Assembly: GCA_943349945.1 (NCBI GenBank)
Contig: CALQZS010000001.1
Location: 213,739-277,738 of the forward strand
DNA from: Candidatus Nomurabacteria bacterium
GTDB lineage: Bacteria; Patescibacteriota; Minisyncoccia; Phycocordibacterales; SBAW01
Length of the DNA: 64,000 nucleotides
Direction: 5' to 3'
In this document: piece after piece, positions 5,137 through 49,887 of the stretch
How positions within the stretch are numbered: the first letter of the stretch is position 1
Layout of the letters: each line of letters opens with the position of its first letter
Notes under the pieces: model-generated
What the model saw: only the letters and a program-made list of their open reading frames with translations
The model's database searches: none
Told to the model about the DNA's origin: nothing
Made by a program: the position numbers and the translations under genes

Positions 5137-5180
5137 TCATTAGTATACCGCCTTGGCGGCACACCTTGCACGGGATAAAA

Positions 5181-7649
5181 CTACTGTTCGATATAACTTG
5201 GAAGCAAGTTCACCACTGCGCTTGCAGAGTTAGACCCGTAGGCATTGGTACAGGTGAGGGTGAAGGTAGTCTGCGCATCCAGGGGACCAGAGTCTACATC
5301 AGCGCCAGAGAGTGCCGTACTAGAGAATCCGTTTTGTCCGGTTACGGAACATGAGATTGCGTCGGTAGTAGACCAGTCGAGTTTGGTGGACGTATCTTTA
5401 CGCACACGCGTTGGGTCGGCACTAAGAGAAATAGTTGGCAAACATTGCGTGTCTGATGGTGCTGCGACACTACAGGAGCCGTTGCACATCACCGTACCAG
5501 AACTTGTTTGGCCACAGACGTTTGCGCCGGAAGTGCATGAGTTGCCGTAGGTGGCAGGCACAGGTGGCACCGTTGCCGAGCAATTGCAGCCCGAGTCGTA
5601 AGTACCAGTGGCATAGTTGCAGGCATTTGAAACACTACAAGCAGCTCCAACGGTGCAGGCTGCCGTCACATTCACATCGGTCCATCCACCACAGTTGTTT
5701 GCTTCGTTTGACTCGGCAATGACACCTACGGTGTCGCCGCTATAGGATTTGTCGGCACAGACGCGGATGCCGTAGGTGCCAGCTGCAGGGAAGGTGTAGG
5801 ACTGGGTAGCTATGCCACTACCCCACGCAGTCAAGGCAGACATGTTGGAAGCAGCTAGGTCGGTGATGACCTCTGCAGCGTGGGCGATGTTAAAGAGTTT
5901 GGTAAAGATGTTATGTGGAGCAGTGGCTGTGGTGTTGCTGCGTACTTGGTAGAAGTTTTGGAAGCCAATGTTGGTAGAGCCACCTCCTGTGTTGGTGACT
6001 GTGGCAGAGAAGGTGGTGGGGGTGCCTGCAACTGCACTAGTAGGGGTGATGCCCGAGACCGTGAGGTCTGGGGTACCTCCACAAGAAAAAACAGGTGTAT
6101 TACCAGAAACATTCCAGTTTACAGGGTCCCCGGGGTGCACCCACGCGCTATACAAAGCGTTTGGGGTGGTGGGTACAGTTATGGATGTGCCAGAGTAGTT
6201 GTCTATATAGCAAACACGGGGATCCGCACTCCATGACGTCCATCCGCTTGCGCAGCTCTCTGTAGTTGGTCTGTAGTAGCGTGGATAGAATTTGGTAGCA
6301 CCAGCTGGCGTTGACCATGAAAGGACTGCGGATGTTCCTCCAGCGTTACAAGAGGCGGTCATTGTAGGGGCTGTGAGTGCCGTACAAGAAAACGATGACA
6401 TGTTTGCTGTCCAATTTACTGTACCGCCTACATTAGTGTGCACCCAAGTAGAATAGGTAACACCAGGAGTGATGCCCGAAAGGTAAGCGTAGGTTTCTGC
6501 AATATTATCTTTGTAACAACCGTATTCCCAATGTGTCCACCCAGCAGGACACGAAGAAAGGTTAGCGCTTACTCGCGGATAATAGGTAGCGCCAGAGACA
6601 GGGCTCCATGAGAGCGTAACGCCAGTACCACTTCCATCACACGCCGCATACACTGATGGATTACCAGCTGCTGGCGGCGCACATGCGCCATCCCCTGCGC
6701 GCAAGTACTGGTACTGTACTGGGCTGGTGTTGCTGTACTGCCACCATTGCCAGTTGTTGCCGTTGGGGTCGCTGCCGCCAGTACAGTAAGGGGTCCAGGT
6801 TATTGCAACCGGAGCTGGTACAACGTAGTACGTACGCTGACTCAATGGTGTACCCCAACTTGCACCATCATATCCAGATACAGAGAATATATATTCTCCT
6901 ATTGGCAAGTTGTACACTAAATTACCATTAGAATCTGCGACAGGGCCGTGGATATTTGCCCCTCCTTGCCACCAAGAGGTACCCGCCGCTTGCACAACTG
7001 AATATTGGGCATTTTGTGTACTCCAGCTTACCGTCGCTTGGCAAGTAGTTGCACCCGGAGCAGCGACACAAGGGCTGCTTGGATAGACAGAGAGGTTCCC
7101 GCTTACTTGAGCGGCTGGTTGGTTTGCCGGCGGCGCACAACTGACCGCAGTAAAGGAGTATCGTTCGTATGTATAGCCAGAGTTATTGCCCAATACCCAA
7201 ATCTGGTACCCAGCACCTCCGGTGAGAAGGCTTGAAAAAGACGACGACCCCGAACAAGGTACGCTGGAACCGAGAGATTGTACGAAGTTGCCCCCACCGT
7301 CGTGCAAGTTTATCCGAAGGCTACTGTCGCCGTTACTTTCACAACTAGGTGAATGACCAGATGCCGCTGTTTCGTTCCAAGAAAAAGATAGGTTGTTGCG
7401 CCCAGACCCATCACAACTAGGCCCTAAACTACCAAAACATGCAGCAACCCCCTGCCCTAGGCCAATTTGCTCAGGAGCCAAACTCACCACAGAAGCACGT
7501 TCTGATACAAACGCACCTGCAAAAACTAAACAAAAGGCAACAGTAGCCCCCGCCGCCATAAACTGTGGCTTTTTTATCAAAACAGAGGGGCGTACTATTT
7601 GCAGGAAAACTTTTTTACTGCGCTGCAAATATGTATTAAATTTTGTCAT
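5181..7649 (-). CDS. Large secreted cell-surface protein with FN3-like and CARDB-like Ig-fold repeats; Cys/Trp/Gly/Ser/Thr-rich
   Basis: 822 aa; hydrophobic signal-like segment MAAGATVAFCLVFAGAFV (alternative start at 7559); motifs GVTLSWSPVSGATYYPR (FN3-like), DLTVSGITPTSAVAGTPTTFSATVTNTGGGST (CARDB-like); two tandem ~75-aa internal repeats (YYPRVSANLSSCPAGWTHWEYGCY... / KFYPRYYRPTTESCASGWTSWSADPRVCY...). Ends 4 nt from the upstream TPR gene. Confidence 0.6.
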   Translation of the reverse strand: MTKFNTYLQRSKKVFLQIVRPSVLIKKPQFMAAGATVAFCLVFAGAFVSERASVVSLAPEQIGLGQGVAACFGSLGPSCDGSGRNNLSFSWNETAASGHSPSCESNGDSSLRINLHDGGGNFVQSLGSSVPCSGSSSFSSLLTGGAGYQIWVLGNNSGYTYERYSFTAVSCAPPANQPAAQVSGNLSVYPSSPCVAAPGATTCQATVSWSTQNAQYSVVQAAGTSWWQGGANIHGPVADSNGNLVYNLPIGEYIFSVSGYDGASWGTPLSQRTYYVVPAPVAITWTPYCTGGSDPNGNNWQWWQYSNTSPVQYQYLRAGDGACAPPAAGNPSVYAACDGSGTGVTLSWSPVSGATYYPRVSANLSSCPAGWTHWEYGCYKDNIAETYAYLSGITPGVTYSTWVHTNVGGTVNWTANMSSFSCTALTAPTMTASCNAGGTSAVLSWSTPAGATKFYPRYYRPTTESCASGWTSWSADPRVCYIDNYSGTSITVPTTPNALYSAWVHPGDPVNWNVSGNTPVFSCGGTPDLTVSGITPTSAVAGTPTTFSATVTNTGGGSTNIGFQNFYQVRSNTTATAPHNIFTKLFNIAHAAEVITDLAASNMSALTAWGSGIATQSYTFPAAGTYGIRVCADKSYSGDTVGVIAESNEANNCGGWTDVNVTAACTVGAACSVSNACNYATGTYDSGCNCSATVPPVPATYGNSCTSGANVCGQTSSGTVMCNGSCSVAAPSDTQCLPTISLSADPTRVRKDTSTKLDWSTTDAISCSVTGQNGFSSTALSGADVDSGPLDAQTTFTLTCTNAYGSNSASAVVNLLPSYIEQ

Positions 7650-7652
7650 ATA

Positions 7653-8453
7653 CTACTTCTTTGCTTGAGCTAGAGATAAATTTGCCTCTATTGCAGCTTG
7701 GAAAGCTTTGATGCTTGCCTCTATCGAGGCTGGGTCGTTGCCCGAATATGCTCGGTGCCATTGTTTTGGGGTCACCTCGCGAGCCAACGCAAGAGCTTGT
7801 GTAAAAGAAGCTTCCGCGTCTACATAGTGTAACCTGTTTAATTGCGCCAACCCCAAAGAATTCCACAACCAGGGGATATCTTTTGCCTCCGGTACTTTTA
7901 TAAAAGCATCTTGGATAACAGCTTCTGATTCTGTGTACTTGCCCTCTTTGGCTAATACGAATGCCAAATCGTTGTATCCACCCCACTCTGCAGGCGCCCA
8001 AGCAACAAAATTTCTAAAATCCTCCTCCGCTGCAGACAGGTTGTTTAGACTTATATACGTAAGCCCGCGCACATATAGGGAGCGTGGGTTGTAGGGGAAC
8101 AAAATTAATTCTGCATTGATATGTGCGAGCGCTCTATCAAGCTGGCCGTCCACAAAATAGATACGCGCCAGCTGGTAGCGCACCAATTGCGTCGCCGGGT
8201 CCAGCTGCAGCGCCAGTTCATATGACGCGGCAGCTTTGCGCAAGTTGTATTCCCCACCGCCAAAGTAGTAGTTGCCTAGTTGCGCCGCCAACGCGGCATC
8301 TGAGTGATTGAGGTAGTACGCAGCCGTTGGTGAGTGAGTATATACAAAACTGGCCACAAACTTTTGAAACGAAGGCGGCGCAACCCACCAAACTACCACC
8401 AAAAGACATAGGGCAAACAAAAATAAGAAAGCGTATGTGCGGCGGCGCATCAC
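7653..8453 (-). CDS. Membrane-anchored TPR-repeat protein
   Basis: 266 aa; N-terminal TM (AFLFLFALCLLVVVWWVA); TPR-like repeats (YELALQLDP..., ARIYFVDGQLDRALAHINAEL...). The annotated start is GTG; an ATG follows 3 nt later. Confidence 0.65.
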   Translation of the reverse strand: MMRRRTYAFLFLFALCLLVVVWWVAPPSFQKFVASFVYTHSPTAAYYLNHSDAALAAQLGNYYFGGGEYNLRKAAASYELALQLDPATQLVRYQLARIYFVDGQLDRALAHINAELILFPYNPRSLYVRGLTYISLNNLSAAEEDFRNFVAWAPAEWGGYNDLAFVLAKEGKYTESEAVIQDAFIKVPEAKDIPWLWNSLGLAQLNRLHYVDAEASFTQALALAREVTPKQWHRAYSGNDPASIEASIKAFQAAIEANLSLAQAKK

Positions 8454-8550
8454 ACTACCTAGTGTACGCTATATATCAGCAACAAAAAGTGGAAAACTAC
8501 AAATGAGAAGACCCAACGCCGCGAGTGCAACGTTGGGTCTTGTGCCGGAA

Positions 8551-8841
8551 TCATCCGGACTTCGAGGACAGGCTCTGCGTAAGGACCTGCGCCAGGCCCT
8601 TGGCATAGTCTGCGGCGTTCGCCGCGTCGAGCCCCATGTTCTGGTCGGTGTACGACCCGACACGGAGCCCGTCGATGCGCGCCTGCTTCAGCGTGACTTC
8701 CGCCACCTTGGCGCGGTTGAGCGCCGCGTCGCAGACGAGGTCCTTCTGGCAGGCCGCCCGCTCGTCGAAGCTCAGCTCCTGGCCGAGTGCGGGGCCGGCA
8801 AGCGCGATCATGATTACAAAGAAACGTCCGATATTACGCAT
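8551..8841 (-). CDS. Small secreted protein (signal peptide) in a high-GC patch
   Basis: Start MRNIGRFFVIMIALAGPALG-QELS...; GGAGG RBS 5 nt upstream; high GC; a 174-aa ORF on the opposite strand (8437..8961) is judged a GC artefact. Confidence 0.5.
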   Translation of the reverse strand: MRNIGRFFVIMIALAGPALGQELSFDERAACQKDLVCDAALNRAKVAEVTLKQARIDGLRVGSYTDQNMGLDAANAADYAKGLAQVLTQSLSSKSG

Positions 8842-8896
8842 AACAACCTCCATTGGATGTTTCGGTGCGTCCCACCTTGGGCCACCAATACATACT

Positions 8897-8925
8897 ATCT
8901 TAGCATGTTAAGCAAATTTTGTCAA
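8897..8925 (-). promoter_or_regulatory. Sigma70-like promoter (TTGACA-17-TAAGAT) for the 8551..8841 gene
   Basis: Read on minus strand: ttgaca + 17 nt + taagat, ~50 nt upstream of the start codon. Confidence 0.4.
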
Positions 8926-9055
8926 GTATTTTGTAGCGACCCAACATCCAAGAGGTATTGACTTTTATATAATAAAAGTGTCAAGTAACCTTTAGTTGCA
9001 ACCCGTTCCTTCCCGCCTTGGGCGGCATAGGACCACATACCAGTCGAGGTATCCA

Positions 9056-9475
9056 ATGATTAAAGTGTTCTTGTTGGCGGCTCTCACTGCGCTATCCCCT
9101 TCCACACTTGTAGCGCAGTCAAAGGAAGTGCCGAAACAGTGTCGGGCGGCCTGGACAATCACAGACGACCCAAGCAAGCGGCACGAGCGCAACACTGGAG
9201 CAGGTCTTGTTGATCTGCTCCAGAAGCGATACTACTCCAAGCCAGGCATAGAGGCATTCCATAGCCCACCAGAAAGCGGCTCTGGGTACGTATACTCAGT
9301 CCCAATTGTCGTGGAAGATTTACCGAATGGAGGTAAGCAATTTACCTTCAATCGAAAGAACGACAATGCGTTTGTAATCGGCACCCTGCATCAAATTCCG
9401 GACGGCCGATGGGAAATGGCACTTTCAGTACAATTGCTAGGATACGTAACGGCAACTGGCCTTTGTATCGAGTAG
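9056..9475 (+). CDS. Small secreted protein (signal peptide)
   Basis: Start MIKVFLLAALTALSPSTLVAQ (ATG at 9056 within the longer 8996 ORF); no recognisable domain. Confidence 0.5.
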   Translation: MIKVFLLAALTALSPSTLVAQSKEVPKQCRAAWTITDDPSKRHERNTGAGLVDLLQKRYYSKPGIEAFHSPPESGSGYVYSVPIVVEDLPNGGKQFTFNRKNDNAFVIGTLHQIPDGRWEMALSVQLLGYVTATGLCIE

Positions 9476-9494
9476 CTCGCCCATGCGCACAAAA

Positions 9495-9521
9495 GCCCTG
9501 CAAATATGTTATTTGCAGGGC
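9495..9521 (+). terminator. Perfect 12-bp stem hairpin (gccctgcaaata-tgt-tatttgcagggc) after the 9056..9475 gene
   Basis: Inverted repeat read directly; the U-tract is weak. Confidence 0.4.
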
Positions 9522-9580
9522 TTCCACTATAAAAACTGTATAAATGCTTACACAAGTATATAGTTAATACAGTGAGGGGG

Positions 9581-9609
9581 TTGACTTTTACACAATAAAG
9601 GTATATAAT
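9581..9609 (+). promoter_or_regulatory. Consensus sigma70 promoter TTGACT-17-TATAAT
   Basis: ttgact (9581-9586), 17-nt spacer, tataat (9604-9609); AAGGAG RBS at 9666 precedes ATG 9679. Confidence 0.5.
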
Positions 9610-9678
9610 AAAGCCAGTTGTAACACGGCACATTTTCCCATTTGGGAAGGCGTGAGTAACATAGCAAGGAGAAAGTAC

Positions 9679-10152
9679 ATGCGTATTTTGTTCGCACTTA
9701 GCATGCTGTTGCTCCCGAGCCTCTCTTGGGCGCAGCAGTACACACCGATCCCCAAGGGGAAGCAGTGCTTTGCACTGCTCGGAGAAGAGCGCGCCCCGCC
9801 CGGAGTGGCGACAATGAGCCCATCCACCGTTCCTGGTCGAGGTTCCGTCTTGATGTCGTTTGAAGAAAACGGCACCGTTCGGCTCTACTTCAAGCGCTCG
9901 ATCGACCCGTACAATGCGGCATTAAGCGGAAAACCTTTCAATGAAGTCGCCCGGTCAATGATAGACCGGGGAAACCGTCCCATCACTCAGATGGACCGCT
10001 GGCTTTCATTCGACCACGGCACAGCGGATCCGAGCAACGAACAAACGTACCAGGTTACCATAGGGCCAGATGGTGGCCCTCTCGGGCGAGCGATTTCTCG
10101 CAACGGGCAATTCTCGGTAACCAAACCACTATGTCAGTCCAAGATCGGCTGA
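9679..10152 (+). CDS. Small secreted protein (signal peptide MRILFALSMLLLPSLSWAQ)
   Basis: ATG at 9679 with AAGGAGAAAG Shine-Dalgarno; consensus promoter upstream; no recognisable domain. Confidence 0.55.
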   Translation: MRILFALSMLLLPSLSWAQQYTPIPKGKQCFALLGEERAPPGVATMSPSTVPGRGSVLMSFEENGTVRLYFKRSIDPYNAALSGKPFNEVARSMIDRGNRPITQMDRWLSFDHGTADPSNEQTYQVTIGPDGGPLGRAISRNGQFSVTKPLCQSKIG

Positions 10153-10162
10153 ACATGGCACG

Positions 10163-10197
10163 AAATCGCCGGCGCACCCATGTGCGACCGGCGATTT
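10163..10197. terminator. Bidirectional hairpin terminator between convergent genes
   Basis: aaatcgccgg...ccggcgattt 10-bp stem followed by ttttttctt. Confidence 0.5.
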
Positions 10198-11476
10198 AAC
10201 TTTTTCTTACAAATAAATTTCTCCAGTTTTGTTTTTTATTTTCACCTAAACTTTCGTTTGGATACAGTATGTTTTTTAACACAGCCACCAACCTATCAAC
10301 ATCAGATCTTTCGTTATACACATAAAAACTAGCCCGACACACACCAGCAGTATCTATTGTTTTGACCAATGGCATAGCGCAATGATACCCTCCTCTACTG
10401 GAAATGTGCTGCTTGCCCAAGGCTTGAGTTACTTGCATCGACGTAACGTCCCTCACAACAAAAGACACTATACCGATATTTTTTTGCTCATTCTTTTCAG
10501 AAACAATTGTAATTTCTGGTATACGACTCAGAGACTCTGTGCAATATTGCACTAAATCTTGCACATGAGACGAAATAGACTCAATCCCTAAAGACTCTAT
10601 GTATTCTACGGCTGCGGCCAAGCCGATCGCCCCCGCAATATTTGGTGTACCCGCCTCAAAACACATAGGAGAATCTCGATATATCGTTTCTTCTGGCGAA
10701 ACACTCTTGATAGCTCCGCCACCACTAAAAATTGGCTGCAATTTAGCAAATATGTCTTTTTTGCCGTACAAACCTCCTATGCCTGTAGGACCGAGCATTT
10801 TGTGACCTGAAAAAAATAAAAAATCGCAGCCTAGTGTTTGTACATTCACGTCCACATGCCCTATCGCAGTAGTTGCATCAACTATAGTTACTGCACCACA
10901 CTCTTTTGCTTGTCGTATAATCCTCTGGACATCATATATTGTGCCCAAAACATTACTTGCCAAAGGTATGGCTACAATTTTGGTTTTTGAACTTATTAGA
11001 TTTTGTGCAACATCATAATCTAACTCTGTACCCTTCAGAGGAATGAGTTGCATCTTTGCTTTTGTCCGCTTAGCTAACTCTTGGAATGGAATAAAGTTTG
11101 AATGGTGTTCTGAAACACTAACAACAATGCCGTCGTGCGGTGTAAGATTTAAAAACTTTTCAAGCATCAGCACGAGCATGTTTAACCCCAAAGTAGCACC
11201 GGGAGTAAACACCATCTCCTTTGTCTCTGCATGAATAAACTTAGCCACCGTAGCACGTGCCTGTTCATAGGCATGTGTTGCCTCCACGCTGAGCGCATGC
11301 GGCCCACGGTGAACATTTGCTCGGTAGTTAAAGTAATAATCATTCATAGCCTCCACCACTTGCTGTGGGGTTTGCGACGATGCCGCAGAGTCCAAATACA
11401 CAAGACTTTGTCCATGTGTATCTTTATAGTTTTTAAAGATAGGGAAATCTTTTTTAATTGTTCCGACGTTTATCAT
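10196..11476 (-). CDS. Cysteine desulfurase, class V aminotransferase (SufS/NifS family)
   Basis: PLP-lysine motif SGHKMLGPTGIG; N-term MINVGTIKKDFPIF...LVYLDSAASSQTP aligns with SufS starts; the track ORF extends 12 codons further to a GTG at 11512. Confidence 0.8.
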   Translation of the reverse strand: MINVGTIKKDFPIFKNYKDTHGQSLVYLDSAASSQTPQQVVEAMNDYYFNYRANVHRGPHALSVEATHAYEQARATVAKFIHAETKEMVFTPGATLGLNMLVLMLEKFLNLTPHDGIVVSVSEHHSNFIPFQELAKRTKAKMQLIPLKGTELDYDVAQNLISSKTKIVAIPLASNVLGTIYDVQRIIRQAKECGAVTIVDATTAIGHVDVNVQTLGCDFLFFSGHKMLGPTGIGGLYGKKDIFAKLQPIFSGGGAIKSVSPEETIYRDSPMCFEAGTPNIAGAIGLAAAVEYIESLGIESISSHVQDLVQYCTESLSRIPEITIVSEKNEQKNIGIVSFVVRDVTSMQVTQALGKQHISSRGGYHCAMPLVKTIDTAGVCRASFYVYNERSDVDRLVAVLKNILYPNESLGENKKQNWRNLFVRKS

Positions 11477-11589
11477 AAAATGCCTGCAATGGTCACAGTG
11501 TACACTAGCCATTTCTTAATCACACAGGGCACGGACCGTGATATGTTTTAGATTTGTAGAACTGCTTTATATATCCTAAACTTATCTCT

Positions 11590-13023
11590 ATGGGCCGTGT
11601 TTTTGAATATCTTCAAGTGGTATTGTTCAAAAAAACTCTTTCACGGTACGCAAAACTACTTCCAAAAGATTTTTTCACAACTACCACTACTAAAAAAACT
11701 GAATTATATAAAAATTTACTACGTGCAGAAATAGAAACAATTAAACAACTCCAAAAAGAAGAGTTTGAATTTGTCAAAAAAATACAACTTCTTCGCTTAA
11801 GAGAAGTGCTTGTGTTAGCCGCACAGACAAGGTGGTGGAACAATTACTTTCTGCAAAAGAAAGTTGCTTGGAAACGTATTGCTACTTTTGATGACTTACA
11901 AACTATCCCACCTATCACCCGCAACAATATTGTGGATGTAGAAAAAAAGGACCTTCTACTACTAGAGGCTAACGACCCCTCATTACTGTGGCGCAGCTCC
12001 AGCGGCAGTACGACAGGCACCCCTGTCGTGTGGGGTTTAAATAAAACAATTCTAATCTTAAACGTATTAGCAAGTTTATTAATACAACTCGAAAAAAGAG
12101 GTTTTTTACTTAGCGCAAATCTGAATCATAAATTTTGCCTCCACTACAATATGTTTATGACAGCCGACAAGCATGCTTTTAAATGGTTTGCTCAACCGGA
12201 CTTCCATATCCCCAACCACAGCAGTGACCGTCGTAAAAAAACTATAGAGCTAAGTTTAATTATTGCTCAAACGCAAAATCTAGTCCTTTTTACCAGTCCT
12301 AACGAATTAATTTCCCTGGTAGACTCTTTTAGAGATATTGGCGATCGACCCCATATACCTTTTATTATTACAGTTGGCTCTCCGCTACCTCCACACGTTC
12401 GTGACACCACAACGCAGTACTTCCACTCTCAAATATTTTCTTTCTACGGCGCACAAGAAACAGGACCCTGTGCAATAGAGTGCGTAAACGTTAAGGACGC
12501 CTATCATGCATTATCAGACCGAATAATTTTAGAGCTCCTTGATGAACACAATCGGCCCGTAAAAGAAGGCGAAGCGGGATTAATTACCGTAACCTGTCTG
12601 GACAACACCGTTATGCCACTTATCCGATACCAACCAGGTGACTGGGGAGTGTTCGTTTCTAACTCTCTGTGCACATGCGGCAATCACTTTCCTTTATTTA
12701 AAGTACTGGAGCGCACCACCGACGTGGTTACTTTTAGCACCGGAGAGCGTCTGTCTATAGTCCCAATTTTAAGATTTTTTAACAGACCTCCTTATATTTC
12801 TTTTGTGAGGCGCTTTCAGATCGAACAAGATCGACACGATCACATCATTGTGAGACTTGAAGTTAAAAAACTATTATCTGAAACCGCCATAACTAGACTT
12901 CACGAAAGAGTTGGGCGTATTTTTAAAGGCAAACTTCAGGCAGATGTTGTGCAAACCACAAACCTTACGCAAGAAAACCCAAAATTTAGAGTATTTATAC
13001 CCTTAAAAACACCGCGACCTTAA
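11590..13023 (+). CDS. PaaK/CapK-like adenylate-forming enzyme (phenylacetate-CoA ligase superfamily)
   Basis: 477 aa; AMP-binding P-loop-like SSGSTTGTPV; strongly AT-rich compared with flanks. Confidence 0.5.
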   Translation: MGRVFEYLQVVLFKKTLSRYAKLLPKDFFTTTTTKKTELYKNLLRAEIETIKQLQKEEFEFVKKIQLLRLREVLVLAAQTRWWNNYFLQKKVAWKRIATFDDLQTIPPITRNNIVDVEKKDLLLLEANDPSLLWRSSSGSTTGTPVVWGLNKTILILNVLASLLIQLEKRGFLLSANLNHKFCLHYNMFMTADKHAFKWFAQPDFHIPNHSSDRRKKTIELSLIIAQTQNLVLFTSPNELISLVDSFRDIGDRPHIPFIITVGSPLPPHVRDTTTQYFHSQIFSFYGAQETGPCAIECVNVKDAYHALSDRIILELLDEHNRPVKEGEAGLITVTCLDNTVMPLIRYQPGDWGVFVSNSLCTCGNHFPLFKVLERTTDVVTFSTGERLSIVPILRFFNRPPYISFVRRFQIEQDRHDHIIVRLEVKKLLSETAITRLHERVGRIFKGKLQADVVQTTNLTQENPKFRVFIPLKTPRP

Positions 13024-14090
13024 TTTACGACTATCCCAAGTTTATCTAAAAAAACTCTAAACTCTGGGGAAATTTTAGCCAGCTTGATTGCTACCATTTT
13101 ATTGAAATTAGTATCAGGAACGTTCTTTAGGTTTGCAAAAAAACGCAACTCCTCTGACAAAGGATCAGCATCTGCAAAAGGCTGGAGAATAGCACGTATA
13201 TCCTCTTCTCTATTCAATTGAGATGAAACAAGATTTGCATTATAAAAACGAGCGCGCCAAATAATTATAGATGGGTTTTTATCTTGTCCTGTCGCTTTAG
13301 CAGTATCAAAAACCAGAGCATAGGCATCTTCTGCCTCTTTTACTGATTCTGCGGGTGATCCGAGCAAGAAAGAAATACGACCCAACGATACAGCTCTGTG
13401 GTAATATCCATGGACAAGAATTGATGGTGAATAAATCGACTCATCGTGGCGAGAATCCCCATCTTTCACATATTTCATCATCATCTCTGCGGTTTCTTTC
13501 GGATCCGCAGCAGTGGGATTACTTACACTTAAAGATGCGTACTGATGCGCAATTGAATATTCTGCCCACGACGTTGGGTATGTATCGTCTGAGTATTTAA
13601 GCAACGCAAGGTATGCAGCGCTGACTTTTTGCGCCTCGGTACCTTCTGCTGGCACAAAGGCATTATATGGAGCTTCGCTAAAGTGAATTTGGTAGAAGGA
13701 TAGACTCGAGTCGTTTACAAAACGGGCAATACTGTTGAGCGCCTGGGCGCGCCACGCAGCAGGTATTGAGTAGTCGTTCACTACTTCTTTTAAGGTTTTG
13801 ATTGCTTGGGTGCGGTCACCGCTTTGGTTTCTAAACCAATAACTCACCCCAAGTAGGATTTTGAGCCGTCCAAATTCTGATTTATTTGGCGCCTGAGCAA
13901 TAAGGGTCGGCAGGTTATTAATGGAAGCCGCATAGTCTCCCGACACAAACGTATCGTACGCAGCCCTAGCATCAGCTTGATATGTGTTGCTTTGTTGAGG
14001 CATGTAAAATCGCATGTAGTATATATACCCGAAAACAACAGCCCCTGAAAGTATTAAGGCGAGCAGTAGTAGAGTGTAACGTTTTCCCAT
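13020..14090 (-). CDS. Membrane-anchored hypothetical protein (AT-rich gene)
   Basis: Start MGKRYTLLLLALILSGAVVFGYIYYM (ATG at 14090 inside the longer track ORF); a single N-terminal TM followed by a large soluble domain. Confidence 0.5.
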   Translation of the reverse strand: MGKRYTLLLLALILSGAVVFGYIYYMRFYMPQQSNTYQADARAAYDTFVSGDYAASINNLPTLIAQAPNKSEFGRLKILLGVSYWFRNQSGDRTQAIKTLKEVVNDYSIPAAWRAQALNSIARFVNDSSLSFYQIHFSEAPYNAFVPAEGTEAQKVSAAYLALLKYSDDTYPTSWAEYSIAHQYASLSVSNPTAADPKETAEMMMKYVKDGDSRHDESIYSPSILVHGYYHRAVSLGRISFLLGSPAESVKEAEDAYALVFDTAKATGQDKNPSIIIWRARFYNANLVSSQLNREEDIRAILQPFADADPLSEELRFFANLKNVPDTNFNKMVAIKLAKISPEFRVFLDKLGIVVN

Positions 14091-14103
14091 AAATATTATC
14101 AGG

Positions 14104-14373
14104 TTAACAAGGACTTTCGCTATCACCAGCACCTTCTGGAGAATCTGATTCACACGCATCACCTTCACCCCCGCCAGCACCAACACCTTCAGCTGATGTG
14201 TTTGTACTGGGGAAGTCTGCATGAGCTGTATTGAGCCCAAAATCTTTTGCCAGTTTTTCCTGTTCTTGTGGGTCAGACTGTGTAAACCTCGCAACCAATC
14301 CACCAAAAAAGACAAGTGCTGTAAGCGCACTGAGTGAAACAAATCGGAGTGATAGTTGTAGTAGGCTTCTCAT
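14104..14373 (-). CDS. Small secreted acidic protein (hypothetical)
   Basis: 89 aa; N-terminal hydrophobic segment, acidic Gly/Glu/Asp-rich C-terminus; 13 nt upstream of the next gene. Confidence 0.35.
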   Translation of the reverse strand: MRSLLQLSLRFVSLSALTALVFFGGLVARFTQSDPQEQEKLAKDFGLNTAHADFPSTNTSAEGVGAGGGEGDACESDSPEGAGDSESPC

Positions 14374-14426
14374 ATATTGTTTAGTGTAGCAGGCTGGCTA
14401 CTATTGAACACCCAACTATCCCCACC

Positions 14427-14912
14427 TTAGTCTTGTGCCGGAATGCGCTCTGTATCCCCCACCACTGGAAGCCCCGCATCTGCCCAGTGGTTTAGCCCAC
14501 CCTCGATACGCAGCAGGTTTTGGAATCCTTCTCGCTCTAAGTAGCCGTAGGCAACCCCGGCCAGGCGCCCCGTCGAGCAAATAAGTACTATTTTTTTGCC
14601 CTTTTTAGGCAATACGGTACGGTCGTCAAATAAGTTTGCTATAGGTTCGCTTATAGAGCCCTGCGCATGGGCAATATCATACTCTCTTTTGCTCCGCACA
14701 TCCAACAGCAAGTATGCATCAGGGTTTTTTTGATAGTCCTCCCAAAAAGCAACAGGGTCGACATCGTGCATTGTTGGCTCAACAAAGTTCATCCACTTAA
14801 GTGGGGTTAGGTAAATAACCGACGCCGCCCCCACCCCGCCCACCAATAGTCCAATAATTAGAAAAAGTGCTGCAGACCAGGTAAAAAGTGTTCGACGTAT
14901 CCACGTAAGCAT
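14427..14912 (-). CDS. Membrane-anchored rhodanese-domain sulfurtransferase
   Basis: 161 aa; N-terminal TM; catalytic loop CSTGRLAG (Cys-x2-Gly-x-Arg); lies 28 nt downstream of ycaO. Confidence 0.75.
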   Translation of the reverse strand: MLTWIRRTLFTWSAALFLIIGLLVGGVGAASVIYLTPLKWMNFVEPTMHDVDPVAFWEDYQKNPDAYLLLDVRSKREYDIAHAQGSISEPIANLFDDRTVLPKKGKKIVLICSTGRLAGVAYGYLEREGFQNLLRIEGGLNHWADAGLPVVGDTERIPAQD

Positions 14913-14940
14913 ACGAAAATTGTATCACGGACAAAAACTT

Positions 14941-16323
14941 TTATGGGAAAGGGTGCGGGTACGTGTTTGTTGGTTCCACCCCACCAAGCACCGGGGTCGA
15001 GAAGCGTTCGTGGAGTGCGAGTTTGTACAACCCTGGTGCAAGTAAGCGCACAGAGTGGAAGCCTACCTCGTCTAGGTACGGCTGCTTTGCTTGCACCACG
15101 CACAGCTGCCCCTTTGCCAAAACCTTAAGCACATCCACTGGATGGTTTGCCTTCTTTTTTAGCAAATCATCAAACAACACTTCCCTGCCTGCCAAAAAGA
15201 GCTCGCCATTTTTTGCTATATGCGCTTGAGACCATGCGTGTATACGCTTAACGTCTGTGATAGAGCGATCACAAAAACCAGCGGTGAGTGTTGTTTCACT
15301 CAATACAGGTGCTTGTGTGTTGTTAGCACCATCCATCGCCCAGGTATATACAGACAAGGCTTCGCACACTGCACGCTCCACAGCCCCGCAGTAGTCCACT
15401 TTTGTGGCCATACCCACAAACCAGCCCAACCCCGGCTTGGTAAGCACTGCAGCAACCGACGGCGTACCGTCTACTAATGTACAGTCCAGCAAGTGAGCAG
15501 TGAAGTCGTATGCAGACACTGCGCGCAATAGTGTTTTTGTGCCCTGCTGTGCCAGCGGGCTTTGCAACACGCTATGCAATGCAATTTTTGGTGGAGCTTT
15601 TTTTGCATACCAATGGGTAAAAAAGCTGTGTCGCTGCAACAGCTCTGACGCACCGCTGAGTACAGCCTCGCCGTATGTATATCCAGCACCAAGGCCATTG
15701 GTATTCATCTCGCCTAGCAATGGCTCGCCCTTTTGTCGCTTGTACCCCCAGTGCAAAAGTTGTGCTGGCACCCACGTAGGCGCCTGTGTAAAAATGTTTG
15801 TTGCTTGCACCCATCCAAAAACAGAGTCCTCGTCCCACACCAAATCAGTAAAGGTCTCTTTCTGCTTCTTGGTTGTTTGTGCCAGCTCAAAGATAGGAAA
15901 CACAGACTCTTTTTGCTCCTGTAATTTTTTGTAGCTTGCATGCACCACCTGTTGCCCAACAGGCACAAACCGCATAGACACGCGTTCGTACAGCTCGCCA
16001 AATGCCCTGGCAACTGCCTCGTCTAAAGACAAGGCTGTCCCTCGTGCAAACACTCGCCCATCTATTGCCCGCAAACCCACATCATAAAAATGCACATTCG
16101 GGGCCAGCTGGAGCGCCCGCGAATAGCCAACTGTTTGGTGTAGAATATTCTGCCTCTGTGCTTGTGCTATCAATTTTTTGTGCGTGTCGGTTGTAGCTAT
16201 GTTCCCCTGTGCCGTAACGCCCGAGAATAGGTGTGTGTCCCGCACCGCGGATACATACTGCGCAAATAACCCACCGGGGGTTTTAAAACGTGTATGAAAT
16301 TCGAGCAACTCGCGGATGTTCAT
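14941..16323 (-). CDS. YcaO-domain protein (ATP-dependent peptide backbone-modifying enzyme family)
   Basis: YcaO ATP-binding motifs ALSLDEAVARAFGELYERVS and NTNGLGAGYTYGEAVLSGASELLQRH; C-terminal PxPxP (PHPFP). The ATG at 16323 overlaps the upstream gene's TGA stop as ATGA (translational coupling); the track start at 16356 is GTG. Confidence 0.8.
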   Translation of the reverse strand: MNIRELLEFHTRFKTPGGLFAQYVSAVRDTHLFSGVTAQGNIATTDTHKKLIAQAQRQNILHQTVGYSRALQLAPNVHFYDVGLRAIDGRVFARGTALSLDEAVARAFGELYERVSMRFVPVGQQVVHASYKKLQEQKESVFPIFELAQTTKKQKETFTDLVWDEDSVFGWVQATNIFTQAPTWVPAQLLHWGYKRQKGEPLLGEMNTNGLGAGYTYGEAVLSGASELLQRHSFFTHWYAKKAPPKIALHSVLQSPLAQQGTKTLLRAVSAYDFTAHLLDCTLVDGTPSVAAVLTKPGLGWFVGMATKVDYCGAVERAVCEALSVYTWAMDGANNTQAPVLSETTLTAGFCDRSITDVKRIHAWSQAHIAKNGELFLAGREVLFDDLLKKKANHPVDVLKVLAKGQLCVVQAKQPYLDEVGFHSVRLLAPGLYKLALHERFSTPVLGGVEPTNTYPHPFP

Positions 16324-17195
16324 ACGTTTTTTTGTTTGTCGGCCAATAAGTAGCACAGCCCCACCAGCACATGCATATGCACGTCGTCTATATATAGTGT
16401 GTTTGGTTGCGAAAGAATGTGCTCGTGGTACTTCCCCAGCGTCTGTTTTGCGTAGTGGCTTGTGGCCCGCTCGTGCAACAGCCGTGTGTAAAGCCGCTCG
16501 ACCAACGCAGCATCGGCCGCATAGTAGGCCAGCACTTCAAACACCTTGCCCACAGGAGACGACCACGCACGAACCCCCGTGTGTAGGTCTTTAAACCAGC
16601 CGTCGGCAGTGTAGCAACTTTCTAAATATTGATACTCCTGTTGAGCCAGCTCTGGTGCCGCACTTTTTGCCCAGACCAGAGTGTCTGCATAATCAAAAAA
16701 ACGACCCTGCCTTGGCGCCAAGCAAAGATTGTACCGCAGCACCTCTTGTAAGTATGTAGTGTGCGGCAGAGGTTTGGGCAGCAGCCCCGAAAGTCGCAAA
16801 TACAAACCCACGGCAATGGGATGCGACAACATATCGGGCACAAGAGCTTGGTGCACTAGTGCAATAGACACCTCTTTTTTTGCATATGCCTCTGCGAGCG
16901 CCGTATACAGCATGATGTAGAGTTTTTGAATGGGAGTTTGCGACTCAAGATTGTCTTGCACATACCGCTCTGACAAGTTTATCTGCTTTTGTATATCCAG
17001 CGTTGGGACAAGTTGTTGCGCAAACATGAGCGCCATGTTTGCCATAGACTGTCGCACAATATCTTTCTTTCTGTCTATAGAATCGGAGACTGTTATGTAG
17101 GAAGGGATCATCCCTTCTGCGTCTTGGGTTAGGAGAATTTTTTCGACATGCCACGCAATACGTGCCTCCAGAGAGTCTCCCGTAACATCTTCCAT
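16320..17195 (-). CDS. Hypothetical protein translationally coupled to ycaO (candidate YcaO partner)
   Basis: 291 aa, largely helical-looking; no recognisable motifs; its stop overlaps the ycaO start. Confidence 0.55.
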   Translation of the reverse strand: MEDVTGDSLEARIAWHVEKILLTQDAEGMIPSYITVSDSIDRKKDIVRQSMANMALMFAQQLVPTLDIQKQINLSERYVQDNLESQTPIQKLYIMLYTALAEAYAKKEVSIALVHQALVPDMLSHPIAVGLYLRLSGLLPKPLPHTTYLQEVLRYNLCLAPRQGRFFDYADTLVWAKSAAPELAQQEYQYLESCYTADGWFKDLHTGVRAWSSPVGKVFEVLAYYAADAALVERLYTRLLHERATSHYAKQTLGKYHEHILSQPNTLYIDDVHMHVLVGLCYLLADKQKNV

Positions 17196-17220
17196 GGCCT
17201 GATTATACTCAATGGTGCAG

Positions 17221-17249
17221 ATTGACTTATGTATATATAGGTGGTATAA
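17221..17249 (+). promoter_or_regulatory. Consensus sigma70 promoter TTGACT-17-TATAAT
   Basis: ttgact (17221-26), 17-nt spacer, tataat (17244-49); AGGAGG RBS precedes ATG 17281. Confidence 0.55.
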
Positions 17250-17280
17250 TTAAAAAAGAGTACAACAGGAGGACTTTTCC

Positions 17281-17706
17281 ATGAACGTTCTGCAAATTGC
17301 CGCCCTGGCACTGCTTGCTTTGGCAGGATGTGCCACAGACAAGCCAACAAGCGCCGTCGCCGACCCCACCAAACTGGTCGCGGGGAAGCGGTTCACCGGC
17401 AACACCACCCCCGACGTGCGCTGCGTGGGCACCGGATGTTATGGGGGCATCGAATTCAACTTCGACGCCACGGATGTCTCCATACGATTTTTGGGAGACA
17501 AAACCATCGAGCCGGGCAGCCTACTGCTGGCGCGCGGAGCCGTCCATCGAGGAGTCTCCAGCTTTGCCATCGAGGGCGGCGAGATCGAATTCTCGGATGC
17601 ATCGAACCGCAAGTACAAGCTGTGGCACGACGGCACCTGTCTAACCGGCAGTGCACACACGATCACGAACCTACACTCAAGCGTCCGGGCATGCCCGGTG
17701 CGTTAA
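17281..17706 (+). CDS. Lipoprotein (lipobox LALAGC) in a high-GC cassette
   Basis: 141 aa; signal peptide plus LAGC lipobox; the gene is bracketed by a consensus promoter and a strong terminator; overlapping ORFs on both strands indicate high GC. Confidence 0.6.
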   Translation: MNVLQIAALALLALAGCATDKPTSAVADPTKLVAGKRFTGNTTPDVRCVGTGCYGGIEFNFDATDVSIRFLGDKTIEPGSLLLARGAVHRGVSSFAIEGGEIEFSDASNRKYKLWHDGTCLTGSAHTITNLHSSVRACPVR

Positions 17707-17722
17707 GTCCACCCCAAACACC

Positions 17723-17770
17723 AAGGCGATGCTGGAAATCTTCCACCAGCATCGCCTTTCTATTTTTCTA
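17723..17770 (+). terminator. Rho-independent terminator (13-bp stem aaggcgatgctgg/ccagcatcgcctt + T-run)
   Basis: Read directly; followed by tctatttttct. Confidence 0.55.
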
Positions 17771-17950
17771 TATACAGAGAGAATGGTTGTTTTATGCATC
17801 CATTGACTTCTGCCCACAAAAGGGATATTCTGTGCACATCTGGTAACTGCCCCGAGTGGGTGGTTTTTTTCGTTCTAGAGATATACAGAACGCCAGTGAC
17901 TATATATCTCAGACCCTGTTAAATCCCACTACTCATTAAGAATTTATATT

Positions 17951-48867: not shown

Positions 48868-49887
48868 TTAGCGCGCTCCGACGCGTAGTGCGCCGAATGG
48901 GTTTTTGCTGCCGCGTACCTCAAAGTGGAGGTGCATACCGGTGGCTTTTCCTGTTTGCCCTACACCTGCGATTACTTGACCCTTCACCACGCTGCTACCC
49001 ACCGCAACTTGTACTGAGCCAGTCTTGGCATGTGCATAGAGTGTTTGCGTGCCGTTTGCGTGTTTTATAACGATGTAGTTTCCGTATCCGCCGTTCCATC
49101 CACCGTTGTCTCGTGCAACTACCACTACACCACTTGCCGCTGCAAGTATTGCAGTGCCTTCTTTAACACCGCCGATGTCGACGCCGTTAAACCCGTGGGA
49201 ACCTTGGGTTATGCGCCCACCGCTCACCGGCCAGCCATAGTAAGTTCCTGATGGGGCTGCTGTTGCGCCAGGGGTAGCAACCTTGGCCGGCGCCGCGGCT
49301 ATTACTCCATCTGGAATGATGATGGTGTCTCCAATGGCTAGTGAAGTATTTTCTGGAACGTTATTATACCTGGCAATATCGGCCACCGATGAGCTGTACT
49401 TTTTAGCCAAACTTGCCAGAGTGTCTCCTGAACCAACCTTATGCTGCACCCCTGTAATAGGCAGTATCACCAGCTCTTGCCCTGGATGCACCACACCACC
49501 CTTAATGTCGTTTGCCCACAAAATAGTATTTACCGAAACGCCAAACATCTCGGCAATGACCGAGAGCATGTCTCCCTCTTGCACCACATACACACTAATC
49601 TGCGACGCAGCGGGGCTCTCTATGTCGGACAAAGTGCCCGAAGGGCCATCTTGCGCCAACAGGGCAACCCCACCCACAAAAGAAATGTCGCCGCCACCCA
49701 CAGCAGGCCGCGGGTCTATATTGGTTGCTGGAGCAAGGGCCGGCAGTGTTTGAGAATTAAAGAGAGCACCCGACGCGTTGCTTGGAGAGGCTGTTTTGTG
49801 CAAAAACGCAGAAAAAAGGCTTGCATCAGCAAGCAGGGGGTATAAAAATACAAAAAAGCCGCCGCCAAGCATGACGCCTACAAACAA
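48868..49887 (-). CDS. LysM-domain M23-family peptidoglycan metallopeptidase
   Basis: Two LysM repeats (GDTLASLAKKYSSSVADIARYN); M23 motifs HxxxD and HLHFEV. Confidence 0.8.
   Translation of the reverse strand: MFVGVMLGGGFFVFLYPLLADASLFSAFLHKTASPSNASGALFNSQTLPALAPATNIDPRPAVGGGDISFVGGVALLAQDGPSGTLSDIESPAASQISVYVVQEGDMLSVIAEMFGVSVNTILWANDIKGGVVHPGQELVILPITGVQHKVGSGDTLASLAKKYSSSVADIARYNNVPENTSLAIGDTIIIPDGVIAAAPAKVATPGATAAPSGTYYGWPVSGGRITQGSHGFNGVDIGGVKEGTAILAAASGVVVVARDNGGWNGGYGNYIVIKHANGTQTLYAHAKTGSVQVAVGSSVVKGQVIAGVGQTGKATGMHLHFEVRGSKNPFGALRVGAR

Follow-up and report, generated by a model that had tools for sequence, protein, structure and literature searches.

Bacteria of the candidate phyla radiation (CPR), or Patescibacteria, have tiny genomes that encode few secreted proteins, nearly all without known function. 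The abundant surface proteins of these bacteria are candidates for feeding on, or attaching to, other cells. The described structures closest in shape to the protein at the center of this study are small beta-barrels: the calycin-type barrels (avidin/streptavidin, bacterial lipocalins, and the designed proteins 6czj and 6d0t); the extracellular sensor domain of the Mycobacterium tuberculosis Ser/Thr kinase PknI (PDB 5xlm), which is tethered to its kinase via a transmembrane (TM) helix and for which we know of no ligand; and a set of barrels from diderm pathogens, namely Treponema pallidum Tp17 (TP0435; 4u3q), the C-terminal barrels of NHBA, fHbp, TbpB, and HpuA, and PliC (3oe3). Each Patescibacteria metagenome-assembled genome (MAG) encodes few secreted proteins, with ~15 extracellular proteins and ~44 signal-peptide proteins of unknown location (PMC11495043). 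Here we describe a 64-kb stretch of one such genome (assembly GCA_943349945.1, contig CALQZS010000001.1), referred to as the window and numbered from its first letter, and within it three adjacent genes, P1, P2, and P3, for small predicted exported proteins. We consider it probable that the three genes are independent and monocistronic, that each encodes a small Sec-exported protein, and that they make up neither one family nor one operon, with P3 being old and P1 and P2 later arrivals.

Three genes for small, predicted exported proteins

The three open reading frames (ORFs) that a preliminary description of the window had listed exist exactly where it placed them (Table 1), and all are intact in L010, a contig from a different sample with ~88% DNA identity to the window and unchanged gene order. 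Between window and L010, the ratio of nonsynonymous to synonymous substitution rates (dN/dS) is 0.23 for P1 (91% amino acid identity), 0.20 for P2 (83%), and 0.04 for P3 (98%), against 0.08 to 0.16 for neighboring enzymes. Identical proteins are encoded on ~20 same-species contigs in ENA, Logan, and NCBI assemblies (GCA_943349885.1). The guanine-plus-cytosine (GC) content by codon position is strongly periodic, with third-position values (GC3) of 0.85 (P1), 0.53 (P2), and 0.64 (P3); purifying selection and this periodicity therefore exclude chance ORFs for all three genes. Shine-Dalgarno (SD) sequences stand 5 to 7 nt before each ATG (GGAGG for P1, GAGG for P2, and AAGGAG for P3), and ~10 to 20 nt 3' of each gene lies a hairpin with a folding free energy (dG) of -22.6 to -25.6 kcal/mol and a z score of -4.5 to -5.0 versus shuffles. 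That each gene has its own SD sequence, strong terminator hairpin, and transcription signals indicates that, as read from the sequence, P1, P2, and P3 are three separate monocistronic units and not one operon.

The signal peptides assigned to all three proteins at the outset were also borne out as predictions of Sec export and signal peptidase I cleavage by a hydropathy heuristic that considers n-region charge, the h-region, the -3/-1 residues, and other TM segments. Uncharged hydrophobic h-regions of 13 to 17 residues (7-19 in P1, 4-20 in P2, and 3-18 in P3; mean Kyte-Doolittle value, 1.9 to 2.4) are preceded by K/R, 0 further TM segments occur in any of the three, and candidate cleavage sites with small -3/-1 residues are ALG↓QE (P1), LVA↓QS (P2), and SWA↓QQ (P3). 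The accompanying statement that the proteins have no recognizable domain agrees with the lack of any match in Pfam, NCBIfam, PHROGs, PADLOC, or PDB sequences, although remote homologues exist for P3. No homology among P1, P2, and P3 was detected by BLASTP or hhalign, and the signal between P3 and a lipoprotein encoded farther downstream is weak. A paralogue search, which the preliminary description had proposed, found none within the window; a P3-like match at 49634-49750 proved to be a spurious ORF on the strand opposite a LysM/M23 peptidase gene. P1, P2, and P3 were also considered and rejected as precursors of ribosomally synthesized and posttranslationally modified peptides (RiPPs), being 96 to 157 amino acids (aa) long, with Sec-type signal peptides, two Cys residues each, and their own promoter and terminator.

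Table 1. Positions of the genes, signals, and segments discussed in the text
Feature	Position	Strand	Basis or remark
Lineage-specific island, 12.8 kb, between pilB (T2SSE) and nusA	5137..17950	.	Gap lengths in 47 related loci
1.1-kb segment with P1, the divergent P1/P2 promoter region, and P2	8482..9580	.	Absent from the L091-093 species and L095
P1 terminator hairpin, 15 bp, then U-rich tail	8508..8541	-	dG -25.6 kcal/mol, z -5.0
P1, 96-aa predicted exported protein, signal peptide ~1-20, mature part with 2 Cys (C-x5-C)	8551..8841	-	ORF; SD GGAGG 5 nt before ATG
P1 promoter, TTGACA-17-TGcTAAGAT, 10/12, perfect -35, extended -10	8897..8925	-	Motif scan
P2 promoter-like element, TTGACT-17-TCAAGT, full-length diverged copy of P3 promoter	8958..8986	+	Ungapped colinearity with 9581-9609
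P2 5' leader, predicted, ~63 nt, with AGTTGCAAC box and hairpin CCGCC-UUG-GGCGG	8993..9055	+	Fold no stabler than shuffles, z 0.17
P2, 139-aa predicted exported protein, Cys29 and Cys137, VPKQC after signal peptide, GLCIE C-terminal	9056..9475	+	ORF; dN/dS
Hairpin after P2, 14-bp perfect stem, 3-nt loop, weak U-tract on +	9493..9523	+	dG -22.6, z -4.75
P3 promoter, TTGACT-17-TATAAT, 11/12	9581..9609	+	Motif scan; hexamers kept in relatives
P3 5' leader, predicted, ~63 nt: long imperfect hairpin, then hairpin over SD and AUG	9616..9678	+	dG -22.3, z -3.4
P3, 157-aa predicted exported protein, unnamed family, predicted 8-stranded up-and-down beta-barrel, conserved Cys30 and Cys152	9679..10152	+	
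Hairpin between the convergent P3 and SufS-like genes, then UUUUUCUU	10163..10197	+	dG -25.6, z -4.5
Lipoprotein promoter, TTGACT-17-TGgTATAAT, 11/12 with TGn	17222..17250	+	Identical in L010 from -35 past -10
Lipoprotein, 141 aa, LAGC lipobox	17281..17706	+	Hypervariable between close relatives

A near-consensus promoter for P3 and its apparent copy upstream of P2

The TTGACT-17-TATAAT promoter first described upstream of P3 is exact, and it recurs exactly before the lipoprotein gene, one base away from the position originally given. Sites of the form TTGACT-N16-18-TATAAT occur three times in 64 kb (0.02 expected), the third on the minus strand at 21787-21760, and the window contains only four promoter sites at the 11/12 level, all upstream of genes for exported or membrane proteins. 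The 11/12 promoters at 21787-21760 (-) and 40561-40533 (-) precede genes of unknown function that encode proteins of 189 aa and 327 aa, respectively, with several hydrophobic segments. Both hexamers and the 17-nt spacing of the P3 promoter are kept in L010 and in L092, one of three contigs (L091-093) of another species on which the promoter is again TTGACT-17-TATAAT, and a further relative, L095, has a perfect TTGACA-16-TATAAT before its P3 homologue. Across four species, with P3 protein identities of only 32 to 59%, the promoter remains at consensus or close to it, and such a consensus promoter despite diverged proteins argues for selection for high P3 expression.

The initial claim that each gene stands behind a strong promoter applies to P3 (11/12) and to P1 (10/12, extended -10), whose -35 is identical in L010 and whose -10 is TAGAAT there, but not demonstrably to P2, which has no good -10 at a functional spacing. 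The element at 8958 had been taken for a shortened, partly deleted copy of the P3 promoter; ungapped alignment instead shows it to be full length and colinear with the P3 promoter through the AGTTGYAAC box. The 48-nt local alignment of the P2 and P3 promoter-leader blocks scores 18, compared with 9.6 +/- 1.4 (maximum, 15) for dinucleotide shuffles, of which 0 of 1000 reach that score. The shared -35 context, TTGACTTTTA, is indeed exact at 8958 and 9581, and with one mismatch allowed this 10-mer is no rarer than chance. A TATAAT at 8968-8973 lies inside the P2 spacer only 4 nt from the -35, lacks a -35 of its own, and is TACAAT in L010, while the -10 at 17-nt spacing, TCAAGT, matches at 3/6 positions, is without the A at position 2, and falls short of a sigma-70 -10. 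We read the P2 element as a copied promoter with a decayed -10. Its spacer (8961-8979) also contains a perfect 8+8 inverted repeat, ACTTTTAT-ATA-ATAAAAGT, which is flanked by TTG...CAA and is operator-like; the P3 spacer is not palindromic.

A conserved position, a rare family, and a predicted barrel fold for P3

P3 is an old, positionally conserved gene. Beyond the near-identical orthologue, its closest relative is P0009 (59% identity), encoded on contigs L091-093 in the order TPR(-), P3 homologue(+), SufS(-). The L095 locus (overall GC content, 0.53) has the order CARDB-TPR-PQQ(-), P3 homologue(+), SufS(-), with identities of 32% for the P3 homologue, 60% for SufS, and 32% for the TPR protein. 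Thus, at least four species have P3 flanked by a TPR gene and a SufS-like gene, in every case with a consensus promoter upstream, and P3 is presumably highly transcribed.

When 1.8 billion representatives were scanned exhaustively by HMMER with P3 as the query, 16 proteins had E<=1e-3, 14 of them small (59 to 203 aa), with a near-identical orthologue besides. The giant repeat proteins P0013 and P0023 score via short repeated stretches of unrelated Ig-like repeats and were left out of the family. Among the 14 small homologues (phmmer E values, 1.6e-46 to 4.7e-4), 13 are full length with signal peptides and one is a 59-aa C-terminal fragment. The family motifs are KQC[FY]xLLGE, GSxL, VxLYF, PYxxM, FxxVAxxMxDQG, FDNG, YxxTI, and a terminal GxC, and two Cys residues spaced 103 to 122 apart are nearly invariant, the first in (P)KQC ~8 to 12 residues past the signal peptide and the second 1 to 6 residues from the C terminus. 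The N-terminal segments are variable in sequence but remain hydrophobic, and conservation begins at Cys30. No significant Pfam family was found for any of the 16 aligned P3-family sequences, and a PDB sequence-profile search was likewise empty; a tblastn search of PLSDB plasmids with P3 and P0017 gave no match, and a metagenome contig scan with P3 alignments found nothing.

Four other family members, on the contigs examined, lie in DNA with GC contents of 0.63 to 0.65, one of them in a Pseudomonadota MAG. Their neighbors are, variously, an HNH endonuclease with small exported proteins, a resolvase fragment, and a MobA/TraI relaxase with a Bep_C-domain protein. In the Pseudomonadota MAG (GCA_018240745.1; L094, 6001-8185), the P3 homologue heads a row of four small exported-protein or lipoprotein genes (109 to 136 aa, no Pfam match) beside the HNH endonuclease gene. 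This row is a further cluster of genes for small secreted proteins, although the small neighbors have no detectable relation to P3 or to the lipoprotein of the window.

AlphaFold2, given the 16-sequence alignment, models P3 with a mean predicted local distance difference test score (pLDDT) of 88.1 and a predicted template modeling score of 0.79, residues 1-20 having a pLDDT of 55 to 57. The model consists of a disordered signal peptide, nine strand segments, and two short helices, and it has the 8-stranded antiparallel up-and-down barrel by which calycins are recognized. Residues 30 and 152 lie opposite each other in the antiparallel pairing of strand 1 (28-39) with the last strand (143-154), and a Cys30-Cys152 disulfide probably ties these strands together and closes the predicted barrel.

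The model thus shares the topology of calycin-type barrels but differs from them in sequence (5 to 15% identity), in having no Pfam lipocalin/avidin domain and no recognizable biotin- or lipid-binding motif, and in two features of its own, the pair of short helices between strands 3 and 4 and the N-to-C-terminal Cys pair. The best Foldseek match is the PknI sensor domain (probability, 0.98; template modeling score, ~0.4; identity, 7 to 9%); unlike that tethered domain, P3 is a free predicted exported protein. The cathepsin C exclusion domain and Gid4 were also listed among the comparison folds. No sequence-family relation of P3 to the Tp17, NHBA, fHbp, TbpB, HpuA, or PliC barrels was detected, and P3 has no lipobox.

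We propose that P3, as the old resident of the locus, is transcribed from its near-consensus sigma-70 promoter through a structured leader of ~63 nt and that its product is exported and most likely cleaved at SWA↓QQ. Mature P3 would fold as an 8-stranded up-and-down barrel stapled by the Cys30-Cys152 disulfide and would most likely serve as an abundant extracytoplasmic binding module, calycin/avidin-like, with a small ligand or another protein as its partner; our best guess is a secreted binding protein. With its rare family, confident barrel model, Cys pair, conserved consensus promoter, and fixed neighborhood (TPR, P3, SufS-YcaO), P3 is now a defined and testable protein.

Probable gain of P1 and P2 on a 1.1-kb segment

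By blastn, L092 positions 5-280 correspond to window positions 8206-8481 and L092 positions 331-644 to window positions 9581-9891, such that homology to L091-093 restarts at exactly 9581, the first base of the P3 -35. L095 likewise has its TPR-PQQ, P3-homologue, and SufS genes without P1 or P2. Most parsimoniously, P1 and P2 are a gain in the lineage of the window and L010. The GC contents of P1 at the three codon positions are 0.66, 0.44, and 0.85, and all other genes examined have GC3 values of 0.35 to 0.71 in a genome of ~51% GC; a GC3 so far outside the range of the other genes points to a high-GC donor and suggests a foreign origin of P1 by recent transfer.

Word-indexed searches with P1, P2, and P3 found matches only in the same species and one relative. 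Homologues of P1 and of P2 were found in L010 only, and a collection of 5.8 billion clustered proteins gave none beyond a single genus-level clade, in searches that for these two proteins were word-indexed, the exhaustive HMMER scan covering P3 only. P1 also gave no family match in curated libraries and no tblastn match to PLSDB plasmids. P2 shares the Cys layout of the P3 family (exactly two Cys, spacing 108, VPKQC...GLCIE) as an architectural resemblance only: hhalign of P2 with the P3 family covers only the signal peptide and PKQC (probability, 22%), and hmmsearch gives an E value of 3.2 among 7058 ORFs. We infer that P2 is either a very diverged duplicate, and hence a putative paralogue, of P3 or a gene that captured the P3 5' region.

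In the proposed history, P1 and P2 would have come later than P3 on the 1.1-kb segment, P1 from a high-GC donor and P2 with a P3-derived promoter/leader start whose -10 has decayed, its protein mimicking the PKQC...GxC layout. Like other orphan small secreted proteins of CPR/Patescibacteria, P1 and P2 are taxonomically restricted and encoded in a variable island with many envelope proteins; unlike those, their origin can be partly traced, from where the indel begins and ends, from the unusual GC3 of P1, and from the promoter copy ahead of P2. The locus may thus be a small, clean example of secreted-gene birth, in which a 1.1-kb indel joined a foreign high-GC gene with a gene bearing a copied promoter and leader.

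Several points weigh against this account. The AlphaFold2 model of P2 is poor (pLDDT, 52), and mature P2 scores -1.2 bits against a hidden Markov model (HMM) of the mature region of the P3 family (p 0.28 by shuffling), by which homology statistically fails. In addition, the polarity of the indel rests on two outgroups only, and the dN/dS values come from one pairwise comparison only, that of the window with L010. The find is a modest one, a useful annotation with evolutionary detail that does not overturn current views and does not amount to a coherent "effector locus."

A variable island between pilB and nusA

NusA, whose gene adjoins the lipoprotein gene, shares 79 to 81% identity with its counterparts in Paceibacteria MAGs (closest, Ca. 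Adlerbacteria, 81%), and by this marker the source genome is one of Paceibacteria (CPR/Patescibacteria); its species is without an entry among GTDB representatives. For comparison of the island we used 80 NusA-anchored loci (L011-L090), with the close relative L010 retrieved separately. A pilB-type ATPase gene lies no more than 10 kb from nusA in 49 of the 80 loci and is upstream and divergent in 47 of these 49. The pilB-nusA gap is below 500 nt (100-500 nt) in 20 of the 47 divergent loci, 1-9 kb in 21 others, and 195-1458 nt in the five closest relatives. The island of the window holds, in order, genes for a CARDB surface protein, a TPR protein, P1, P2, P3, the SufS-YcaO cluster, and the lipoprotein. 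The repetitive CARDB domain excepted, its genes had no match in the 80 loci, and L010 was the sole full match; the three small-protein genes lie inside a fast-evolving island. Across Paceibacteria the pilB-nusA interval is an insertion hot spot, usually filled by unrelated signal-peptide proteins, lipoproteins, or large surface proteins.

The cluster at 10196-17195 encodes a SufS-like cysteine desulfurase, a PaaK-like adenylating enzyme/ligase (477 aa), an unknown protein of 379 aa, a rhodanese, a SagD-type YcaO protein, and an unknown protein of 291 aa, and from its gene content it looks like a sulfur-delivering YcaO system for peptide or protein modification. The PaaK-like protein had no relative in 185,579 GTDB representative genomes. 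The left part of the cluster (10196-14159) has GC3 values of 0.35 to 0.38 and the right part 0.50 to 0.54, a split by which the cluster may be a mosaic. At 14104-14373 (-) lies an 89-aa ORF, also annotated as a gene in other assemblies, whose product has a hydrophobic segment at the N terminus and ends in an acidic tail rich in Gly, Ser, and Cys (...GGGEGDACESDSPEGAGDSESPC); this product could be a precursor or substrate.

At the far end of the island, the lipoprotein shares only 51% aa and 58% DNA identity with its counterpart in L010 (9469-9900), while the flanks are 85 to 94% identical in DNA. Its dS is ~1.95 (saturated) and its dN/dS 0.23, with promoter, SD sequence, and signal peptide nearly unchanged between the two contigs, a pattern that looks like either replacement of an allelic cassette or diversification of a surface antigen. 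The gene is likewise self-contained, with its own promoter and a strong hairpin. hhalign aligns the lipoprotein with the P3 family over 82 columns (probability, 73%; E, 3e-5), and the mature-region HMM gives a weak score of 1.0 to 2.5 bits (p 0.007 to 0.018 by shuffling); the lipoprotein is possibly a remote fold relative of P3.

Alternative explanations

The preliminary description saw in the three genes a small effector/secretome locus under strong promoters. Predicted export signals and separate transcription signals (strong for P1 and P3) survive from that proposal; a common identity does not, as the genes are unrelated and of different ages and the P3 family is not CPR-specific. A dedicated effector locus, with proteins that act on the host of a presumed episymbiont and are expressed from strong constitutive promoters, appears unlikely to us. 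Signal-peptide-like N termini on all three proteins and the strong promoters of P1 and P3 fit it, but P2 is without a good -10, and the genes differ in composition and have no mutual homology. Fast evolution is seen in P2 and the lipoprotein, whereas P3 is under strong purifying selection between close relatives (dN/dS, 0.04). The setting is suggestive, in a CPR genome with a type IV pilus ATPase gene adjoining, and a cluster of three or four would be a noticeable share of the few secreted proteins per MAG (PMC11495043); against this, library scans detected no toxin, enzyme, or host-mimicry domain. Finally, the P3 family also occurs on high-GC contigs, one of them in a Pseudomonadota MAG, in mobile-element contexts, and the family is therefore not a CPR-specific host-interaction effector.

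A second explanation, which we hold to be quite unlikely, would tie P3, and perhaps the lipoprotein too, to the SufS/PaaK-like/rhodanese/YcaO cluster as an extracellular binding, immunity, or carrier protein for the peptide that the cluster would make or as a modification substrate. P3 adjoins and is convergent with the SufS-like gene in 4/4 species read, including the one with only 32% identity in P3 and 60% in SufS, but adjacency among related genomes may be mere inheritance, and the high-GC members of the family are not beside YcaO or SufS genes. Although P3 and the strongly promoted lipoprotein gene bracket the YcaO cluster in the window, the L091 and L095 contigs end in or just after SufS, such that co-occurrence with YcaO is seen only in the window and L010; P3, moreover, carries a promoter and terminator of its own and does not share the orientation of the cluster. 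As for a substrate, the 89-aa ORF with its G/S/C-rich acidic tail could be the precursor, whereas P3 differs from RiPP precursors in its Sec signal peptide and in having no more than two Cys residues. A more specific version, in which the P3-family barrels and the hypervariable lipoprotein would be dedicated extracellular partners, for binding or self-protection, of a sulfur-containing peptide from the SufS-YcaO cluster, is more speculative still and in our judgment very improbable; if true, it would define a new type of RiPP-associated secreted binder and be among the first functional assignments for a secreted protein of a CPR island.

Decidedly doubtful, too, is the explanation that the P3 family consists of exported small beta-barrel inhibitor or immunity proteins, similar to PliC/MliC, that guard the envelope from a hydrolase or toxin. 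High expression and carriage on mobile elements would both be explained by it, but a Pfam MliC domain together with a close structural match to PliC/MliC was not seen for P3.

That some or all of the ORFs and promoters arose by chance is scarcely credible: the region contains 14 promoter-like sites at >=9/12, no more than the 14.3 expected, and long overlapping ORFs lie opposite P1, but purifying selection and codon-position GC periodicity in all three genes, the SD sites, terminators with z scores of -4.5 to -5.0, 11/12 promoters that are 150-fold over expectation and conserved across species, and the homologues and confident predicted fold of P3 argue against it.

Leaders and hairpins

The orthologous P3 leader of L092 has an architecture similar to that of the window (z -1.5) and that of L095 a weaker one (z -0.2), both weak statistics. 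RNAalifold of the P2/P3 leader hairpin in five sequences found only a single compensatory pair, and the covariation term was positive, which gives no support to a conserved RNA element common to P2 and P3; no Rfam family was found in the leaders. On the minus strand, a match to the Rfam family MicC at 9480-9612, antisense to the P2-P3 spacer, reached 30.5 bits against a gathering score of 90 (E 0.05) and was taken as chance. The loop of the P2 terminator (9507-9509) is reverse-complemented relative to L010 (TGT versus ACA) within an identical 14-bp stem, a hairpin-loop inversion. On the minus strand, UUUUGUG comes after the hairpin at 9493-9523, and this U-tract is better than the one on the plus strand; an antisense or bidirectional terminator is possible at this site.

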